Source of the DNA: Cirrosporium novae-zelandiae
Lineage: Eukaryota
Reading direction: 5' to 3'
Assembly (NCBI GenBank): GCA_026023565.1
Contig: JAPETS010000003.1
Coordinates: forward strand, 434,001 to 498,000
DNA length: 64,000 bases
The translations under genes were made by a program, and so were the position numbers. Of the stretch, positions 33,330 through 60,311 are shown piece after piece (the first letter of the stretch is position 1; each line of letters starts with the position of its first letter). The notes under the pieces were generated by a model that saw only the letters and a program-made list of their open reading frames with translations, was not told where the DNA came from and did not search any database.

Positions 33330-34573
33330 AGATGCAGGAGGTGGAAGGTGTGCTTGTGGTAGCGAACATGATAATGACTTGATGGCGTTTTGTTGGTTCG
33401 CCGATTGCGTTTTTCATCACGTCTTTGATATTCCAAGGAGGGAGTCGTAGATTTGGACTAATGTGATGGCTGGATGGATGGATAAAGCTCCGGATTGGGA
33501 TCTTATCCGTTTCTTCTATTTTTTTCAACATAGACATTATGCATCTATCACTATCTTGCAGTGTCCGGTAGCGACACCTCTCTCGAGCTATGACTATGTA
33601 ATAATATCGACCCTACTCCAGCCTACGGGTAGCGGTGCCGACTAGTTTATAGAAAGTGGCGTCCAATGAAGGAGACCACCATTCACTTGGATTATACTTG
33701 GACAGCCAGTTTTCCAGAAATCTAGTAATTTCCGGTGATGTTAGCTACCCATAATGATGGCCTTAGGCATATGACCTTGAGGAGGCCTCCAAAATCAGTT
33801 TTCATATATTCGCAAAACAGATTTTTATTTGAAAACCCCCCCCAACGCCATTTTTCTAGTTTCACTACAAAGTACTTTTGGGTCTAGTCGCTTTCATCCC
33901 TACCCGTTGAAAGCATTTCCAGTAGAGTCAAAAAATTTCCTCACCACTCTTCTTTTGTTGCAACTTACATATCACAGGCACCACACGGCAACTGGACCGG
34001 GTATGCCTCCCCTCACCCACCTGCCCCGCTCCGATGACCCTGCGGTCAGGCTGGCTGTTAGAAACGCAAACTGGCTGTAACATTTACGCCACACATGCAG
34101 CAAGCCGTCTTGGAATTGTCCTACATCTAGGACAGGGTTCAGTGCTTTCGTCGCCTGGGCTGGGTGAACCGGACCCCCGGTTGACACAAACAAATGGATT
34201 CAAGCCACAATTAACCTCGTGCATTTGTACTCGAGAGGCTTTCTATGATCAAGTTCGACTTTTGAATTCAAGGTCTCGATGGCAGTCTTGCAGACGAGGC
34301 CTCCATAACACTACAATCAAGTCATTCAGATAGCAAACAGAGGCAGGATCCACAGTACCCCAGCTTTAATATATAACCTTGCTATATTGTTCATCTAGGC
34401 ACCGACACATCTCTGCTTTGATTTAGCATGAATTTTGTAAGAACCCACCCTCGTCCGGTCGTCTTGATTTTCAACGTTGTTATTAGATCTTTCCAAGTGA
34501 ATCTCTATCTCTGCTATAGACTATCGTCTTGCTTGTTTTCTACTTGTCTTTGAAGATCCTAATATTTCCCAAC

Positions 34574-36387
34574 ATGGCTTGCGAGGAGTGCAAAAAGTCT
34601 AAAACCAAATGCGAAGGTGGTGGGCACGGGAAGCCTTGCACACGGTGCCAAAGAGTACAGAAAGCTTGCAACAACTCTGATGGTAGTAGTGTGAGCAGCT
34701 TCGACTCCACTGTTGGTCGTACTCCAAGCTCGACCTTTTCTACACACATCAAGGAAAGCGAACAATTTGAACGAATGGGCGTGGGTTCTCTTGCTCCATT
34801 GAAAATTTCTGATGCCGAGGTCCTCCAGAGGTAACGATACCGTAGTACCATTCTCATGTTCTTGTTATGTACCTCAATTTTGTTATGCATACACAACTAC
34901 TACCTATACCATGATTGCCTTATTTCTGAACATTCCTTCCTGCTAATGCTCCTTGTTTTAGCAATAAATTTAATATCCCTCAACGGCGACTTCTTATCGC
35001 GAGGGATCATAACCAGGAAGAGATATGGTACAAAGCATATAGGTCTGACACTGCATTAACTGCATCATATTACTATGGGCCAACAAGTGGGCAAAAGGGA
35101 GCAAAAGATGATATAGATTCATATGTGCCAAACGTGGATAAGCTGGTCAATTTTGTCACCGGCAGAAGATCCAAAGAAACCACTAATGCTCGTGGGGCGC
35201 GACGTTCAACTAATAAAGCGCTTGCTTGGATTTGGGAGGCTTGTATGAGAGCAAGTGGTCTCGGGCACGAGATTCTCAACCCCAGGAACGAAGAATCACC
35301 GAAGAGACATCGTCCAAGGAGGGATGTAAACTCGGGTTCAGATAATGAGTACACTCCAGCCCGTAAGAAATGTCGTGCCCCGCCGGATCTGGACAGTATC
35401 GTAGTCCAGACCTCCCCGAGAAAGAATCTAGAGATGAACCCACCACCACGCTCATTAAAGCCGCCCCATATGTCGAAACTCCCTGATAAGGGGAGAAAGT
35501 CGAAATCTAGCCGCTCATCGGATATATCTATTGACATAAATTCTCCAGAAACTACAGATACATTCACCCGAGCTCCATATCTTGCTCCACAGCTTTTCCC
35601 AACACCGAAATATCTGGAACCAGACGTCGGGCCACCACCTCGCCAGATCCCTAATAAACCGCCAAAGATCACAAGCCCTAATTTGTCTATATTAAGTAGG
35701 AAAATTCCTTCAGTACCGACCAAAAACATACCAAAACAGTTGGATACCCCTCCTTCTCGCCAAAAGGACAAGGCCCCCTCCAGCCACCCATCTAGCCGTA
35801 AGCAGAGTACACGTCCTCCAATCCAGATCATTATTGAAAAGCAGCCAGATTTCCCCCGGAACCATTATCAGACATATACAGAAGAACCCCCCTTTCCCTC
35901 GCCTACAAAATCCACAACCGTAGCAGCCACAGCCGAACCCACCACCACCACCACTACCACAGCAACAACAGCATTAACAGTCCCAACAAGCCCATCAACA
36001 ATAACAAAAATCTCATTCCTCGGCCTCCAAGTCCCCAAACCAAACCCCCTCTCCCTCGATCTAAAAACCATCCGCCAAGCCCTCGAGCGAAGCGAAGCCC
36101 GCTTCATAAAGCTCGCAACCGGCATTCTCCCCTCGGCGCACGGGCTGGGGGATGCCGGAAACAATATCAAGTACCTCCTCCTCGACATTATCATGGAAGC
36201 TCGGAGCCAGAATGATGAGGGGTTCGCGCAGAGACTTGAGGGTGAAGTTACGAGGAGGTGGGAGGAGTTGGAGTTGGATGGGAATAATGAGAATGGACGG
36301 AATGGGATGGATGGTCCAAACAACAACGACGGTGATGAGTTTGAGGCTTTGTATGCGCGGGACGGCACGGTTGACTCACTCATCTGA
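34574..36387 (+). CDS. Zn(II)2Cys6 binuclear-cluster protein with Pro-rich disordered region
   Basis: MACEECKKSKTKCEGGGHGKPCTRCQRVQKAC fits CxxCx6Cx8CxxCx6C. The intron at 34831-34961 joins it in frame to the 35125-36387 ORF. Confidence 0.85.
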
Positions 36388-38016: not shown

Positions 38017-38287
38017 CTATAAAACGACATAGGAAGAATCGGTTGAATTATCATTATCACCATTACCGTTGTGGTTGTCGTCGTTATCATCACTATCAGC
38101 ATCCCCTTCAGGTACTAGCCGCATAGTTGTTTCGTGCCTACTGCCCTCTGCGCTCTGTTGCAGCGCCGCCCTTTGATCCTTATCTTGTACATGTACATGT
38201 ACGTTGGGATCAGTAGCCCCTTTCTTGAGTAGCATCTTAATAATCTTCTCGTGCCCGCCGCTTTTCCCTCTTTATCTTGCGCGTTGG
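38017..38287 (-). pseudogene. Ankyrin-repeat C-terminal fragment (frameshifted)
   Basis: NAQDKEGK.../GHEKIIKMLLKKGA.DPN...QDKDQRAALQQSA...HETTMRLV matches the ankyrin consensus. It is cut off by a MITE at 38288. Confidence 0.75.
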
Positions 38288-40854: not shown

Positions 40855-42075
40855 CTAGCACTTTTCAGCCTGCATTGAATTAATTAACGCCATTTCTTTC
40901 TTTTTGACCTGGGGATCATCGATATATTTTCGAGTGGCTTTATTGACGGCGGCCGTGCCATAAGCGTCATTAAGAGATGTCTTGTCTAGTGCAGTAGAAA
41001 GGGCAAAGCGATAGTACAAGTCTGGTCCTTGGGGGTACCTTTCCTTTAGTAGCTTGGTAATATCAGTTTGAAACTGATCTTCCATTTGTCTAAAGCTATC
41101 GGTGGTGGTAGAGGGTAAAGGATTATCTGTAGAATATGTATGGTCACAACTTTGGAGCATCGGATTATCGGATGTTGTCGGTGAACTTCTATTATTTTGG
41201 TGAGGGGCTCCAGCGTGTCGAATAGATAACCAATTAGGGCTGGTTGGCCTGGGAATTTTTCGAGATAGCCTCTTGCAGCTAACATTGATAGGCAATCCAG
41301 GTCCAATATTTACGACAACTGAAAGAGGTACATTGTGCCCAAATAGATTCCATACCTCATTTAAGGCAAGGCGTGTTATATTATGAGGATTGGGGAATCT
41401 ATCAGAGAAGGTGATTTTTCTGGTATTTGTGTCTCGAATCTTCCAAGGACGAGAGAGATGCTTTATTGCACTGGTTGCAGCAAAGGCACTCGAGATATTT
41501 TCTTTGAGTGGATTAGGTCCTGGAAGGAGATTTGAGGATTCAAGGGTGGGGTAGGTTCGGAAAAGCCAATAATTAGGGTTGGGACCATTGGAGCGTATCT
41601 GAGGGGCGGCAACAAATACATATCGACACTGTGCTGGACACTGATCAAGCAAAGTCTTTCCAGTTTCGTACTTGTCCGTTAGATAGTCAACTTGGCCAAC
41701 AAGAAGGTCCGGATCAAAATGCGAATGTTTTAGTTTCATACACAACTTCTCTCTCATCGTCGTCGGAACGATGTAGTGGGCCAGCTGCAAGTATTCAGTC
41801 AAGCAGGCAGTGATATCGAGGTGAAAACGGCCAAGAAGAAGTGCAAGCCAGCCGCCGGTGCCAATTCCGGCAATAACATCAAAAAAATCACAAGGTCTTG
41901 GACGTTGTTTGGGATTTCCACTATGTTTGGCGATTTCATCAAGGATATCACCGAGAATCAAGAGTGTGGAAATAGCTTGCAGTCCACCGCCATCGAGGGT
42001 TAGAATTCTGAGAGGCTGAGACCGTTGCGTTGCTGCCGACGGTGCCGACCCGTGACGTTGAATTTGAGTTGTCAT
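40855..42075 (-). CDS. Patatin-like phospholipase domain protein, predicted catalytically inactive, intronless, 406 aa
   Basis: LRILTLDGGGLQAIS, RPCDFFDVIAGIGTGG (Gly where GxSxG has Ser), AATSA, no DGG motif (FSDRFPNPHN), VVVNIGPG, YYRF. Confidence 0.88.
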   Translation of the reverse strand: MTTQIQRHGSAPSAATQRSQPLRILTLDGGGLQAISTLLILGDILDEIAKHSGNPKQRPRPCDFFDVIAGIGTGGWLALLLGRFHLDITACLTEYLQLAHYIVPTTMREKLCMKLKHSHFDPDLLVGQVDYLTDKYETGKTLLDQCPAQCRYVFVAAPQIRSNGPNPNYWLFRTYPTLESSNLLPGPNPLKENISSAFAATSAIKHLSRPWKIRDTNTRKITFSDRFPNPHNITRLALNEVWNLFGHNVPLSVVVNIGPGLPINVSCKRLSRKIPRPTSPNWLSIRHAGAPHQNNRSSPTTSDNPMLQSCDHTYSTDNPLPSTTTDSFRQMEDQFQTDITKLLKERYPQGPDLYYRFALSTALDKTSLNDAYGTAAVNKATRKYIDDPQVKKKEMALINSMQAEKC

Positions 42076-42953
42076 TTAAAGTCTAATTATGCTTTAACCA
42101 GAATTTCGGAGCGCTAGTCTGGTAAAGATATCGATGGTATAATCTTAAATATGAGATAGTCTGCTCAGTGAAAAACAAAGTGTATAACAGAGTGCGAGCA
42201 TGAGTCTCTTTCTTTGGGAACTGCAATTATTAAACCTTTTTTGGTTCTGCGAGGATAAGGCTTCAGCCGTTAAGCTGAGACCGATACAAGTCGAGATTAT
42301 TATACTCGTAAGTGGTTGAGAACATGACCCTGGCATTATGACCACACCTTGATGTAGGTAACTATAGACTAACCATTTAGGCCATATAAGCAATAGATAT
42401 TAAGTTATCCCTTAGAGTACTTGTATTCAGATTATTAAGTACTATATACAGACCATGGCCTGAGCCCCAACAACTACCCCTCACTATAGTTGAATTTATG
42501 AATAGAAGGATCTCCTAAACTGGCCCCAAAGGTCTATTGCTAGTAGGGATGTCATGTAAGGATTCTAATAAATCAGATCAGATCCCTGTTTTCAGGCAGA
42601 ACAAGGTATCAATTTCGTTGCTGAATTATTAAGCTTCAATATTCGAACCCTTGGTTCCATTATGCTTATCATCGCTTATAATTTCAAAAGTAAGATAAGA
42701 GCATTGCGAGGCACCACCTGAGGTTTCACCTAGCTTCGGGGTAAACCGGTCACGTAACAATTATTTCCTATTCAGCTATTCTCAGAATTACGAGGTTTAT
42801 AAAGCTGACCAGTAAGAGCACTATATTGTATTGACTTAAGTGTTGTATTCTTCTAATCTATAGTGATTTGCATCGAGATGAAGAATATATTCTAGCGTCT
42901 TGGCACTCCTGGGCTTATATAGTTTGTATGACTTAACCTTAGATAAGTCAATA

Positions 42954-43003
42954 CGAGGTTGGATTCCACGAGGTTGGATTCCACGAGGCTGGATTCCACG
43001 AGG
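42954..43003. repeat. 15-bp tandem repeat (CGAGGTTGGATTCCA) x3
   Basis: Directly visible in the intergenic region between the divergent patatin genes. Confidence 0.85.
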
Positions 43004-43418
43004 CACATCGAAACTGCAACCTCTAGTCAAGGCTAGTCATGTGCGATACATATACTGCAAAGTACCAAATATTTAATTTTTAAGTGACCGGTATGACCGA
43101 GATGGCTGAAAGGAACAAGGAAAGCATTTTTCTAATCTGGGCCTTTCGGGGATCTTCTTTATTGTTATTCAAGGCCCGGGGTAAGTTGTATGTTTGAATA
43201 GGCATTCATTTAATTTCCCAATATCGTGAATGCAAATTCAAATATGCGACTTACCCTAAAATTATCATCAGAACGGGTAGTTACTTTATAGCCTACCGAT
43301 TATGGAAACTGCACAGTAGACATTGTTGCCTTATAACGCTCAAAGAGATCTCCCCCTTGGGTATAAATTCCAACTACATTGTTATTCTAGGTCGAAAATC
43401 TGTTTCTTGAACGTTGCG

Positions 43419-44795
43419 ATGAATAATTCTCCTGAACTAGACCATCTCAATGTACTTGTTCTTGGTATGTGTATATCTTATTATTTCTATAGCTAGCTGA
43501 CTTTTTAGATGGAGGTGGTGTACGTGGTCTGTCCTCTTTGCTTATCCTCGAAGATCTTATTCGCCGTATCAATGAAAATATCAGAAGTAAGACTGGATTG
43601 ATGATCGATGACCTAAAGCCACATCAGGTCTTTGATCTTGTGGTTGGAACAAGTACAGGAGGGTAAGATGATTTCACCGGCACTCTATTATCAAAAAATC
43701 AGGTCAAGCTTATATTTTTGATGGATCATATTATAGACTTATCGCGATAATGATTGGAAAGCTGGGTTTGAGTGCCAAAGAATGTATAAATCAGTACCGT
43801 AACTTATCAAAGGAAGTTTTTGGGAGATATCACTTAAGAGGCAAGCTTAGTATGGGAGTGTTCAAGCCCCGATACTCCGGAGAATGTTTGCGGGATTGTG
43901 TCAAGAGACTGTTGCGAACGCATGATCTGCCTGAAAACTTCCAGATGAGGAGTAGCAAGGAAACTAGCAACCAGGACTCAACTACTGCTTGGTAGGTACT
44001 GACGGCATCTTTCCTTTTTGGTTTTGTGGCTTATATTTTGTCAGTGCCGTGGTCTGTCGAAGGCGAGACTCTAGATATTCTCCACTGGTTAAAGATGCAG
44101 TCTTCATATGCAGCCTAAAGTGTCTAAATTCGCCAAATTCCCTAGATTGCGGAGTTTGCGATGCTGCACGAGCTACTTCTGCTGCGCCAACTTACTTTCC
44201 TCCCATCAAAATAGGAAACAGATATTTTATCGACGGTGCAGTAGAATACAACAACCCGTCTTTTGCTCTATTTCAACACTATCGTTCATCTTTACCGCCA
44301 GATGTTAAGCAGAATCGGCGAGAGACCCATACCTCGGATCTGAATTTCCAACGTATTCGTATGGTTAATCTAGGTACTGGAAATGAGCCTCAAAGAGACG
44401 AACAGATGCTGGCTATCACCAGCCGTTCAATAGTCAAGCGATTGCGGCTTTTTCGTTCAATTCGAGATGCTGTTGTTAATGGAAAGGATGCAATCAAGAT
44501 TGCCACCACCTCTCAAACCCAGGCAGAATTCATGGAAACCTTGTCCCAGGCAAACGAAAGCAATGGTGATATCAAATACTATAGGTTAAGTGATAACACT
44601 GGTGTTTGTTACATCAAACTGGATGACTACAAAAAACTGGATGACATCCAGAACTCGACATTACAGTACCTGAACAATCATGATACAGTCGACCGCTTAG
44701 AAAGAATAGCCAATGAAATTACAGAAAGCCATATTAACAAAATGGTTCCGAACCAACCCCAAAGCCAGATAGAAAAACCCAGGAACGAGACCTAG
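43419..44795 (+). CDS. Patatin-like phospholipase with intact catalytic motifs, 4 exons, about 401 aa
   Basis: Exons 43419-43464, 43509-43662, 43737-43991 and 44045-44795 total 1206 nt in frame. They encode LNVLVLDGGGVRGLSSL, FDLVVGTSTGGL, ARATSAAPTYF, FIDGAVEYNNP, VNLGTG, YYRL. Confidence 0.9.
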
Positions 44796-55955: not shown

Positions 55956-58900
55956 CTAGATGACTGGCTCGACTGCTGGGTTGAACTTGATGATTGCCAC
56001 TTTACTATAGTTATATAGCACCGCGATAGTATCGCCGTTACTATCGTAGGTATATTGTAAAAAGCTAGGTATATAAATAATCCTCTGCCTGTTCCGAGTT
56101 ATCTAACTTCCGGGATTATCTAACGTACATGATAAATAGGGGTTGGTTTGAGAGCTATCCACAGGATGGGGTTTAAGTGCAATTTTTTGACCATCCACAA
56201 ATAGATGCAAGCCATCAGCACTGAAAGATAAGTTATGGGAGACCTGACCGCAGGTAATTATCTGTTTATCAAATATCTGAATCATTTCCATCGACTTAAG
56301 GTCCCAGAGCCGAACAGTGGTATCATAGGCTGCAGATGCTAAAAACCTGCTATCTGGAGAAAATGCAAGGACATGAATCCCTCCAGTATGGCCTTCAAGT
56401 ACGCTTTTCAAAGCCCCAGTTTTTGGGTCCCAAAGCCGGACGGTATTATCATATGACACAGATGCCAGTAACTGGTTATCCGGAGAAAACAAAACCTCTA
56501 GAACCCATTTAGTATGGCCTTGGAGTATGGTTTGTAGAGCCCCAGTTTCTGGATCCCAGAGTCGGATAATATGATCCTGTGATGTACATGCTAGGAAATG
56601 ATTATTTGGAGAAAATTGAATCTCCCTAATGCTCCCAGTATGGCCTTTAAGTGTGTTGTACAAAGCTCCAGTTGTTGGATTCCAAAGTTTGATAATATTA
56701 TTCAATCCAGTTGCCAGGAAATGTTTATTTGGAGAAAACTTAATTTCCATATCCTCTAGAAGCAGGGAATTATCCAACCAAGGTATAAAATACACTATAT
56801 TTTGGATCTGGCTTGGAATCTGGTCTAAGAACTGTTGGCGGACAATACTTTTGGTTGGACTAAATACCAGAGCCGAACAATACACTTGGAGAGGTGCCTG
56901 TTCAATGGCTTTTCCACGTCTAAAGATGAACTTCCTTGCATCATGAACCATGGCATGAAGAGGATCCTCGTCAGGATTAATGAAAATTAAGTCGATTTCG
57001 ATATTTGCAATAAGAATGTTTAACTGGATGGACTTACTGTCACAATTGATTCCAAAACAATAATTATTTTTTTGCTCTCAGCTATTTTATCCATCAGACT
57101 CATGGTCTCCAGCCAATGAAGTAGGTGTTCGTTGAGAAATACATGAATAGTTTCACTATCATGAAGCTCAACAAAGCCATGTCCTTGGTAAATGGGATGT
57201 TGAAGATGTCGGACCCAGTAGCGACAGGCATATTTTACGGCTGATGAGAGGTAGCGGTCTACGATATCACTTTTTACTTCTCTCTGACGTGTGCCTGGCA
57301 TGCGTAGGCTGCAACCGTCTTTTCTGAGCTTAATCGACATTAACTTGATACATTCCAAGGACAAATCCCTATACATCTTTTGTTCGTCAACCCAGAACTG
57401 ATTATCTGAACATCTGTTTTGATCAAGGAGGAAGTTGCGAAAAGATGGATGAAGTAGCCGAATGGGAGATTCCGTGGATGTTAGAATATCAATGATTGAA
57501 TATAAAGGGTCCAATGTAGCTTTTATTTGGTCCTGGGGCATTTGAAGCAGTTCACTTAAGGTAGTGAAAGAAAGTAAATCAAAAACAATAACAAGTGGTC
57601 CAAAAATATCTCGAAAACGATCACCCAATAATTTTTTGACGCTTTTTATAGTCCCTTGGATCACGGAATGTTGTAATATATGAGTGTATATCATGTCCAA
57701 CCTTCCCTCCGGAGTGGTCGAATCTGTAGGTATATCAGCAATAAGATGGTTGAGGCTTTCTGTTGGAGAAAGTGCCGTTTTCTCCACGAATAAATACGCA
57801 GTAGCTGCATAAATAAACAACCCTCCTGTTTGTTGTACAAGATTTGCTATCATTTTTTCACCTGGCCAATCTGTTGAACCGATCTTTTTAATTTTTCGAA
57901 TCTGATTTAGCTCGTAACGAAAGAAAGCTGAAATATTATGTTCTATGACTGACTGGGGAATATCTTGTAGCTGGAGATCGCAATAAATAATTCCCTGGAT
58001 CTTTTGAAAACTTTCACGAATAGAGACTTCCGGTCGACTGGTTACAAAAATCCGAAATCGCATAAAATCAAGTGCTTGTGCTTCATGGAAAATTCGGAGA
58101 ATTATTTCAATATCCTTTACATTATCGCACTCATCTAATGCGTCGATAACAAACACCAAGGCCTAGGGGTGCGACTGGCTGGTGTTTCGGGTTGACACCT
58201 TTGAGAGTGGTTGATAGATAAGTTCCTCCCACTGTTTAAATAAGGTTTGATTGGAAATATCCGGATTTTTATTGATAGCATCACAAATTTGTTCTCGGAG
58301 GTCCGATGAGAGGATAACAAGCTGGTAGGCGAAAGTTCGAAAGAACTTGGCGGCATGACCAAAATCACCTCCACCTTGGGAGAAGAAGAAGTTGGTTACC
58401 AAGTGTTCTTGTTTTGTTTTAAAAAGGTGGGCAGCAGTGTAAGCGATCGTGGGTTTGCCAGTGCCGGCCATTCCTTTAAACCAAAAGATGCGATGTCCAT
58501 ACGGCTCGTTACTCCATATCTGGATCTAGTCAAGAAGCTCAACTCTGGTGTTAGCGAGGCAGCGAGGCTCATGTTCGTAGCGATGACCGTCGTTGTAGGT
58601 GGCGTTTTCAATGGCTGATAGTTTTTGGAGTAGTTCCTGCTGCTGCGTGCTAGAGATTTGACATTGTTTCAACTCTCTAATATCCTCTCCAGTCGTAACG
58701 ACTACAGAACTGTCAGGACATGGTCAGTACTAAACTCAACAAGGCGATTTCTCTTCTTACTGTTGATCTATAGTTAATGCAGCATGAAAGTTTCCTATGT
58801 ATGTCTGGATCATGCTAATATTTTTCTGCATCTCATCGCAAGTGAAGGACCATTTCAAATTGTGATAGCTAAACCTCAGAATTCTCCATCTTTTCTTTGG

Positions 58901-59155
58901 AGTTAACTTGTCCCGTAGCTTCTTCAGATCATCTTGACACAGCTTCATTTCATTATCTAGCGAGCTCAGTGTGTTTACGCTGGAGCCCTGTGTCAGTTCT
59001 TGGAATTTTTCGAGGATATTTTGAAAAGTCTGTAATGTATTGCACAGCCGGGCTATATCGTCTTTAGCACTGTTAACCTTCAACCAGTATTTCGCGGAAA
59101 GGGATAGCAGCTCTCCACAAATCTGCGAAACAGCAAGGATAGTTCCTAGATCCAT
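55956..59155 (-). pseudogene. Fungal NLR (HeLo-like/SesA-type N-terminus - NACHT - WD40, HET-E-like) with three in-frame TAG codons
   Basis: N-terminus MDLGTILAVSQICG...LKWSF; intron 58760-58710; CLANTRVELL, IFWFKGMAGTGKPT (Walker A), VFVIDALDEC (Walker B), RIFVTSRPE, GGLFIYAAT, LLHPSFRNFL, YACRYW, APLQVYCSALVFSP, and 42-aa WD repeats. Stops at 58526-58528, 58163-58165 and 56103-56105. Confidence 0.9.
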
Positions 59156-60311
59156 AAGAAATGAGTATGTGGGAGTCCTTCTGGGCAATAAGTAATTTCA
59201 AAGCAAGACCTCAATAGTAAACACTAGGTAGAAAATATTGTGAGTTTTACTTCACACTTTCTCTCTTGCTTGTTAGCTATGAAGGATTAAACGGTACGGG
59301 GTTGATAACTTTTCATTGGATTTGGGCCCTGCAATATTGCCTGAGGCTGAGACTGTTACCAGTTGCTCTTCCACCTATAATAGGAGGTGTTGATATCACC
59401 CGCGCGGCAATATTAAAGCGTCGATCGGTTATTGGTTCGACAATAGTAACTCCGCTGCAGGTGATATAGAACCCTACAACCTCAGGCTGCCGATATTGAT
59501 TACCTCGAGCCGTGCCAAGGCATGTTGAAAGGACCTCCTGTGATTATCTACAAGCTTCTGCAATTATCGCAAGCGCCTCACTAGTCTTCCTAGTGCCCTT
59601 CCTTTTAGGTGCTATCCGTCTAAGTAGAGAATTTACCAGATATCTCCATAAGACACTCACTGCGAATGCAATGTCAAGCCGTGGCTCAGTCGTGGGCCAC
59701 ATGTTTGATCTGAAAATGGATTGATGCTGGGCTATAAGTTTGTCTGATAATAAATTGTCGTAGATGTTAGAACCATGTCACGTAACAACCAGATGTAGAA
59801 TAGCTTGAATAGGGTTTAGCCCTCCCCCACCAAGTTTAGTTGAAGGAGTTGAACGAGGGCTTAACCCCTCCACAATAGGCTTAGCGGCTTTTCTAGTATC
59901 CCGTGAGTGGCAGCGCGGTCCGCCGGCAACACATCTCCTTCGTTCTCATGCTACCTAATCACTATTTAGGATAGTCTCTTTATAATCATCACCAGTTCAC
60001 TACCCTAGCATCAACATAGTGTTGTGGCGCAGACTTATAGTTGCAATTATCGTTTGTCTATACCTATATAATGGCTAGACCCAGAATTCGAAACCAATTA
60101 AAGCCATCTTTATCGCGCAATGCCAGCATTCATCCCCCGGAGACGGATGTTAAGATAGTAATTTGACCGACGAACCCAGAATCCTGAATCTCCGTTAATT
60201 AGACGTTAACGATGCATACGATCAGGTCCAGAGAATTTCCGTTACTGTTTTATACAAAGTCGAAAGACCTCCCGCAGCAATACCTGTGACCAACATATAC
60301 ATCTGCCCACC

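Follow-up and report, generated by a model that had tools for sequence, protein, structure and literature searches.

A Ser-less patatin-fold gene paired head-to-head with a canonical patatin-like phospholipase gene in Cirrosporium novae-zelandiae and other filamentous fungi

A 64,000-nt stretch of the genome of Cirrosporium novae-zelandiae (class Xylobotryomycetes, Pezizomycotina; assembly GCA_026023565.1, contig JAPETS010000003.1, positions 434,001 to 498,000, forward strand; hereafter the window) contains two stand-alone patatin-like genes that diverge from one spacer. The plus-strand gene, the active gene, encodes a canonical patatin-like phospholipase (PLP), and the minus-strand gene, the Ser-less gene, has Gly at the position of the nucleophile Ser. 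Patatin lipases carry out cell death in fungal NOD-like receptors (NLRs), the bacterial cyclic-oligonucleotide-based antiphage signaling system (CBASS), and plant immunity. The locus raises the question of whether the Ser-less gene is a decaying copy or a selected partner of the lipase gene and, if a partner, in what way the two proteins could work together. We favor the second answer and, with moderate confidence, read the pair as an old, conserved module of filamentous ascomycetes, in which a lipase and a non-catalytic Ser-less partner are co-expressed and probably heteromeric.

Two patatin-fold genes, one of them Ser-less

The Ser-less gene (40855..42075, minus strand, stop codon included) is a single exon with one uninterrupted open reading frame (ORF) of 406 aa. 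The active gene has four exons on the plus strand, separated by GT-AG introns of 44, 74, and 53 nt, and its spliced translation matches the 401-aa database protein P0121 letter for letter. Exon 1 (43419..43464) opens with Met1 and closes one base into the Asp16 codon, exon 2 (43509..43662) encodes both DGGGVRG and GTSTGG, exon 3 occupies 43737..43991, and exon 4 (44045..44795, stop codon included) encodes the dyad Asp (IDGA, D215) and a C-terminal helical extension. Between the two start codons lies a spacer of 1,343 bp (42076..43418, 39% GC), probably a shared bidirectional promoter. A preliminary description of this DNA, made from its letters and ORFs, had proposed two intact genes of this kind diverging from a region of about 1.3 kb, and the gene models confirm it. 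Three tandem 15-nt units (GAGGYTGGATTCCAC) were seen by eye within the spacer at ~42955-42999. Comparison of 17 spacers by blastn and ORF tblastn found no third gene, ORF, or DNA element conserved past close relatives.

The active protein carries DGGGVRG at residue 16, GTSTG at 62, and DGA at 215, as had been described, and scores 80.7 bits against Pfam Patatin (PF01734; cutoff 27.7). All three catalytic motifs are thus present together with a score above the Pfam gathering threshold. GTSTGG was found in 54 of the 56 aligned sequences of its family (the partner family). AlphaFold2 (AF2) modeled the protein with a predicted local distance difference test (pLDDT) of 86.4, and Foldseek matched the model to CapV at E 2.7e-16 and also to patatin.

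The Ser-less protein contains DGGGLQA (residues 28-34), GIGTGGW (70-76), F-S-D225, and PHNIT (230-234). Profile-profile alignment of the two families with hhalign (probability 99.8%, 343 columns, a common C-terminal helical extension included) pairs Gly72 with the nucleophile Ser64, Gln33 with Arg21, and Asp225 with the dyad Asp215. Gly72, encoded by GGC at 41860..41862 on the minus strand, accordingly takes the nucleophile position of GxSxG. The protein therefore lacks the GxSxG nucleophile elbow of a competent patatin phospholipase as well as the oxyanion loop DGGGxRG, of which DGGG is kept and the Arg replaced. Although there is no literal D-G-x motif, the dyad Asp is probably retained in the family, since D225 aligns on D215 of the partner family. 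The earlier claim that all three catalytic elements were lost therefore holds for the Ser and the oxyanion Arg and was overstated for the Asp.

Patatin was the sole Pfam family detected on either protein, and on the Ser-less protein the match covered the N-terminal third only, at 21.2 bits and below the 27.7 cutoff. The AF2 model of the Ser-less protein, from a 67-sequence alignment, had a pLDDT of 85.2 and a predicted template modeling score (pTM) of 0.85, with residues 276-316 predicted to be disordered. Foldseek placed patatin (1oxw, E 1.8e-11), CapV, CapE, and iPLA2-beta among its best matches in the PDB. A complete patatin alpha/beta fold, extending across the domain, is thus predicted for the protein. 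Identity between the two proteins is 33% and confined to the first 97 residues, and the genes are therefore not recent copies of each other. No protein identical or near-identical to that of the Ser-less gene turned up in a search of a collection of 5.8 billion proteins, which does include the product of the active gene; the ESM Atlas includes the Ser-less protein letter for letter. The Ser-less gene may be absent from the deposited annotation.

Family-wide conservation and head-to-head linkage

Searching the 5.8-billion-protein collection with the Ser-less protein returned 349 matches, the best of them only ~43% identical, and motif counts were taken from the best 120 of these. Named homologs came from the lichen-forming Lecanoromycetes (Teloschistes, Xylographa, Puttea, Alectoria, Pseudevernia, Usnochroma) and from the Leotiomycetes (Hyaloscypha, Leptodontidium), and an exhaustive HMMER scan recovered 59 cluster representatives at E <= 1e-30. 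The pattern G-x-G-x-GGW was present in 120/120 homologs (117 GIGxG, 2 GTGxG, and 1 GVGxG), with Gly at the nucleophile position in every one and Ser in none, so none has a normal GxSxG. Gln replaced the oxyanion Arg in 117 of the 120. D225 (F-x-D) was near-invariant across the family, and the strict pattern F.D..FP.PHNIT occurred in 105/120. The segments of the former active site (DGGGLQ, GIGxGGW, F-x-D, and PHNIT) are among the invariant or near-invariant columns of the Ser-less family.

The reading frame is also maintained. The Ser-less ORF was uninterrupted across the whole match in 22 of 24 metagenome loci examined, and in the other two (L021 and L024) it begins part-way, with an intron likely after CDVFDT. 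The ratio of non-synonymous to synonymous substitution rates (dN/dS; Nei-Gojobori, NG86) was 0.15-0.18 for every pair with dS of 0.05-1.5, pairs that amount to two effectively independent contrasts (one between two species groups, the other between L013 and L018). The ratio is thus well away from a value near 1, and these comparisons show the Ser-less family to be under purifying selection. For the window copy dS was saturated against every relative (dN 0.53-0.62), so selection on this particular copy is read from its retained conserved columns only. Of 84 columns with >=90% conservation among the other 66 aligned sequences it retains 79; departures at these columns number 1 in the median sequence and 19 in the worst.

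To follow the linkage of the two genes beyond the window we used metagenome contigs. Sixty-six loci were fetched with the family alignment, of which 32 had family-level matches (L001-L032) and fell into 16 clusters at 85% identity. Linkage could be assessed in 15 of the 16, the L001 cluster having no usable upstream flank. In 14 of these 15 clusters tblastn found a canonical plus-type family partner directly upstream and on the opposite strand, although a contig edge cuts the partner short in two of the 14, leaving just its beginning visible (L020, to residue ~89; L023, E 3e-11). In most lineages the two genes of an intact pair lie 868-1,124 bp apart; two species groups have gaps of 1,564-1,661 bp, two contigs a gap of 2,410 bp, and the window one of 1,343 bp. 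NCBI locus tags of the two genes were consecutive in the lichen fungi Xylographa soralifera (MMC17_002290/002291) and Teloschistes flavicans (Q9202_006930/006931), and in at least 11 further pairs of Ser-less and partner proteins the size of the longest contig was identical within the pair. The linkage anticipated by the preliminary description is therefore found in other species, and its recurrence in 14 of 15 assessable independent lineages puts the arrangement far beyond chance.

The genes flanking the pair were unlike one another and ordinary across 10 loci (histidine kinase, alanyl-tRNA synthetase, Vps35, a coatomer subunit, and dehydrogenases), with no neighbor gene conserved among the 10. 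Because these flanks vary between loci, the conserved unit is the pair and not its neighborhood. Pairwise identities of the two genes correlated (r = 0.87; 12 loci giving 66 non-independent pairs), and the Ser-less protein was at least as conserved as the C-terminal half of its partner in 62 of the 66 pairs. A quick tree grouped the Ser-less sequences with support 100 and set them, by a long branch, apart from every other patatin sampled. Recurrence of the same pair in many distantly related filamentous fungi indicates that the Ser-less copy is a selected partner and not a decaying gene. The core of the preliminary description, a selected pseudoenzyme tied to an active gene, is borne out by motif, dN/dS, and linkage together.

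Two kinds of departure from the intact pair were observed. At L018:8261-11296 (= P0161, 775 aa) a HET domain is fused to a Ser-less patatin, with a single 817-codon open frame running from the C-terminal part of the domain into the patatin. Pfam detected no HET on the fused 817-aa ORF itself at E <= 1e-3; the HET core (PF06985, E 5.2e-12) was located in the adjoining upstream ORF, from which we infer that the two ORFs are joined by a short intron or a frameshift. No second fusion of this kind turned up: L018 accounts for 1 of the 16 clusters, being the one cluster of the 15 assessable for linkage that lacks a partner, and at E <= 1e-30 it is the single long protein in the set of 59 representatives. 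The other departure is loss of the active gene within a set of nine contigs that are 96-98% identical in the compared stretches (L005, L006, and L009 against L025 and L007), six of which carry the full pair. L005 carries a 1.75-kb deletion through which the spacer is missing and the active gene has lost its 5' end, and L006 and L009, from different assemblies, have a common 4.9-kb deletion in which the active gene is wholly gone. Except for two pairs of identical copies, the Ser-less alleles of the near-identical contigs differed by 6-10 synonymous and 2-5 non-synonymous codon differences (~1% divergence, with two length variants of 1,302 and 1,323 nt), and deleted haplotypes compared with full ones showed synonymous to non-synonymous differences of, e.g., 9:3 and 10:5.

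Proposed working of the pair and competing readings

The unit consists of a canonical stand-alone PLP and a divergently transcribed, distantly related, full-length patatin-fold protein across a spacer of ~1 kb, and we propose that the shared spacer keeps both proteins co-expressed. Without the Ser and the Arg, the Ser-less protein is presumably unable to hydrolyze lipids through the patatin Ser-Asp mechanism, and it would act as a non-catalytic subunit or regulator of the lipase. The two would most likely pair through their patatin domains, much as solved patatin-fold enzymes pair with themselves, and the pairing would set whether and when the lipase is active, with the Ser-less protein serving as an activator, a brake, or a ligand sensor. 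PDB titles describe CapV as a dimer, a tetramer, and a filament, and because solved patatin-fold enzymes self-associate, a hetero-pair of paralogs would be a natural arrangement.

Co-folding of the two proteins gave an ipSAE of 0.59 against 0.00 for the best control, for which the tool's verdict is 'weak support'; at least 63% of contacts agreed between runs, and partner pLDDT was at least 70. Solved complexes reached the mark in 51 of 78 cases and mismatched pairs in 2 of 108, and passes at 0.60 or under comprised only 5 of the 78 complexes and all 4 of the mismatches that passed (of 180). The preliminary description had suggested that the Ser-less protein may bind, inhibit, or trigger the active one; of this, a physical interaction gains some weak support from the co-fold.

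Several points weigh against a lipase controlled by a non-catalytic partner. By the tool's own calibration, a co-fold pass at such a score is wrong in the majority of cases unless pairing had been likely from the outset; the run was made without the family alignments, and the pass may only echo the solved homo-oligomers of patatins. The Ser-less and partner families do not come out as sisters on the quick tree, and origin of the pair by local duplication is therefore not established. The probably retained Asp and the conserved pocket leave room for non-canonical activity or ligand binding over pure scaffolding. Within 10 kb upstream of the L018 Ser-less gene there is no patatin partner. Finally, the Ser-less ORF is intact in 9/9 of the near-identical contigs, including L005, L006, and L009, in which the active gene is truncated or deleted; the Ser-less protein may therefore have a function of its own.

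A tentative alternative is that the pair is an NLR-free module of regulated cell death or defense, in which the Ser-less patatin senses a trigger or restrains a lytic lipase and then releases it. This keeps the executor/regulator or toxin/antidote idea of the preliminary description and drops the selfish element. The L018 fusion agrees with this, as a known fungal death domain stands there in the place of the lipase. So do the two independent deletions, which hit the active gene and spare the Ser-less gene, the order of loss to be predicted were the lipase the costly member of the pair. Both models also show a resemblance to CapV of CBASS. Cell death through PLP-1 requires patatin activity, and hetC, an incompatibility gene of Aspergillus fumigatus, encodes a stand-alone PLP, as far as the available portions of the published accounts go. 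However, the HET fusion is single (1 of 16 clusters), the deletions all fall within one closely related set of contigs, and no NLR, HET, or other death gene was a regular neighbor of the pair in the 10 loci. The HET fusion, the deletions of the active gene only, and the executor role of fungal patatins in cell death nevertheless make us lean, with low confidence, toward a restrained death or defense effector, and regulated cell death or defense is plausibly the most likely biological setting of the pair. The cell-death or regulator role advanced in the preliminary description thus receives indirect support only, from one HET fusion and the deletion polymorphism of the active gene.

A more specific version, which we consider doubtful, would cast the Ser-less patatin as the sensor or guard in a two-gene death switch of filamentous fungi that works without an NLR. 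The membrane-attacking lipase would be held inactive by patatin-domain pairing and released or activated when the conserved vestigial pocket of the Ser-less protein binds a lipid or nucleotide, and in one lineage the Ser-less protein would play the same role on the fused HET domain. If true, the switch would be a eukaryotic counterpart, in logic, of the ligand-gated bacterial CapV and the first pseudo-patatin regulator.

It is rather improbable that the two proteins are co-regulated without binding each other. In that case the Ser-less protein would have a separate task within the lipid pathway of the lipase, for example binding or transferring lipids, or catalyzing a non-canonical reaction through the Asp and other conserved residues (e.g., His231 or Cys62). 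The pocket segments DGGGLQ, GIGxGGW, F-x-D, and PHNIT are the best-conserved parts of the family, the Asp is probably retained, the Ser-less gene is intact without its partner in L005, L006, L009, and L018, and the co-fold support for pairing is weak, all of which would suit an independent role. Yet strict head-to-head linkage across classes exceeds the usual needs of co-regulation, and no patatin is known to work without the nucleophile Ser.

Readings of the pair as an allorecognition (het) locus, as a meiotic driver, or as Starship giant-transposon cargo are very improbable in our view. The active gene does show presence/absence polymorphism, and a NACHT-WD40 gene lies 11 kb away in the window, at 56.1-59.2 kb. 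PLP and NLR genes are typical Starship auxiliary genes, the PLPs being, like those here, Pezizomycotina patatin genes and often lying near NLR genes, according to the accessible portions of the sources (PMC9156397; Tangerine preprint). Unlike that setting, neither a DUF3435 captain nor DUF3723 or a ferric reductase (FRE) was detected among 20 large ORFs and 93 ORFs of >=70 aa within the window, or among 83 flanking ORFs (>=130 aa) of the 10 loci, and Starship cargo was rejected on this basis, although a captain farther off could lie past the end of the window at 64 kb. Both genes of the pair also co-diverge, there is one copy per locus, and near-identical alleles are ~1% apart with a synonymous excess, unlike the deep allelic divergence of het loci. 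Neither the earlier suggestion of an allorecognition or meiotic-drive-like unit nor a selfish toxin-antidote element finds support: the two genes diverge together across fungal classes, their neighbors are ordinary and vary between lineages, and only the deletions point toward drive or allorecognition.

That the Ser-less gene is a recently inactivated pseudogene with a frame kept open by chance has next to no chance of being right: its Pfam score under the gathering cutoff and the lack of an identical protein in the 5.8-billion-protein collection would fit, but recent decay is ruled out by the same substitutions in 120/120 homologs, the dN/dS of 0.15-0.18, and the 79 of 84 conserved columns retained, and a patatin fold is predicted with confidence.

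Related systems and the surroundings of the pair

In logic, the proposed module of a lipase and a non-catalytic partner comes closest to pairs of an enzyme and a dead paralog and to ABHD5-PNPLA2; by fold, it comes closest to patatin and CapV. Caspase-8 with cFLIP and the trypanosome 'prozymes' are pairs of an enzyme and a dead paralog. ABHD5 is described, in the available portion of its source, as a pseudoenzyme that activates the patatin lipase PNPLA2. In these systems a catalytically disabled protein, related to the enzyme or, in the case of ABHD5, unrelated to it, controls an active enzyme, and the analogy is one of logic only, without sequence relationship; ABHD5 is an alpha/beta-hydrolase and not a patatin, and binding and regulation within the pair described here are proposals.

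The predicted full patatin fold of both proteins is shared with patatin-like phospholipases in general (PF01734; 1oxw; iPLA2-beta, 6aun). The Ser-less family differs from these in having Gly for the nucleophile and Gln for the oxyanion Arg, with the window copy scoring below the Pfam cutoff, and both families of the pair carry the extra C-terminal helical extension common to the two. Among solved structures, CapV was the best or near-best match for both proteins by structure and by sequence, and both proteins matched the phospholipase effector models of PADLOC. CapV and CapE are cyclic-nucleotide-activated lipases of bacterial CBASS that, going by PDB entry titles, are kept off until switched on through oligomerization. 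In contrast, the pair described here is eukaryotic, no cyclase gene was noticed with it (none was specifically sought), its identity to solved CapV, CapE, and related lipase chains is 13-21%, and the regulator we propose is a paralogous protein and not a nucleotide.

Fungal patatin domains execute cell death in Neurospora PLP-1 and Podospora HET-Z, and in hetC of Aspergillus fumigatus a patatin without an NLR scaffold acts in incompatibility, according to the accessible portions of the sources (PMC11138114; bioRxiv 10.1101/2022.04.03.486892; PMC12881547). Those portions make no mention of a Ser-less partner. Unlike the PLP-1 and HET-Z NLRs, neither protein of the pair (401 and 406 aa) has NB-ARC, NACHT, TPR, or other repeats, and no SEC-9-like partner is involved as it is for PLP-1. 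The likeness to hetC is one of description only, not of sequence comparison.

Full-text literature searches, with subscription journals and supplements outside their scope, turned up neither the head-to-head pair nor a family of Ser-less fungal patatins. A conserved, selected Ser-less paralog locked to a canonical lipase provides a concrete candidate regulator for stand-alone fungal patatins, and the pair would add a patatin example to the systems of an enzyme and a dead paralog. Nucleophile Ser was also lacking in eight other fungal patatins (P0250, P0252, P0256, P0267, P0273, P0286, P0298, and P0302, with GTGTG, GNGTG, GSGTG, or GAGSG). Among them P0256 has NB-ARC and TPR repeats and P0267 a weaker NB-ARC match. 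On the quick tree these sequences arise at least 2-3 times, apart from the family of the Ser-less gene. Since loss of the Ser recurs in other fungal patatins, including those of NLR type, annotating a 'patatin phospholipase' domain as an active effector calls for a check of the individual residues.

The pair in the window was earlier described as surrounded by decayed genes and transposon debris, which was not borne out. None of the ORFs of >=70 aa to either side of the pair (93 across 30.5-40.8 kb and 44.9-64 kb) matched a transposon family in Pfam. Apart from WD40 units, 30-64 kb is free of repeats of >=40 nt, and composition resembling repeat-induced point mutation (RIP) was patchy, with only two 2-kb bins reaching the classical RIP thresholds. 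The flanks of the pair are gene-poor and AT-rich, and include an ankyrin fragment and the NACHT-WD40 gene broken by a stop. The latter, an NLR-like gene with NACHT (NPHP3_N) and WD40 repeats (56106-59197, minus strand), has its NACHT region split by a single in-frame stop at 58163-58165 and a frame change near 57020-57077, and could be a pseudogene or contain unmodeled introns. Its WD40 units repeat every 123-126 nt, and a weak Rx_N-like match (E 0.008) covers 58760-59197. The lone ankyrin-repeat fragment (38020-38271, minus strand, E 0.001) lies 2.6 kb from the Ser-less gene. At 34520-36384 on the plus strand is the start of a Zn2Cys6 transcription factor (E 1.7e-7), upstream of a 485-codon frame without a Pfam match. 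Positions 1-30000 of the window hold ordinary housekeeping genes (an amino-acid permease, a lipase-region protein, PEX6, a DDX60-like helicase in a 1,754-codon frame, 3-beta-HSD, a UBC-domain protein, and a LIM-RhoGAP protein), and from ~36 kb on the window becomes more AT-rich and gene-poor.

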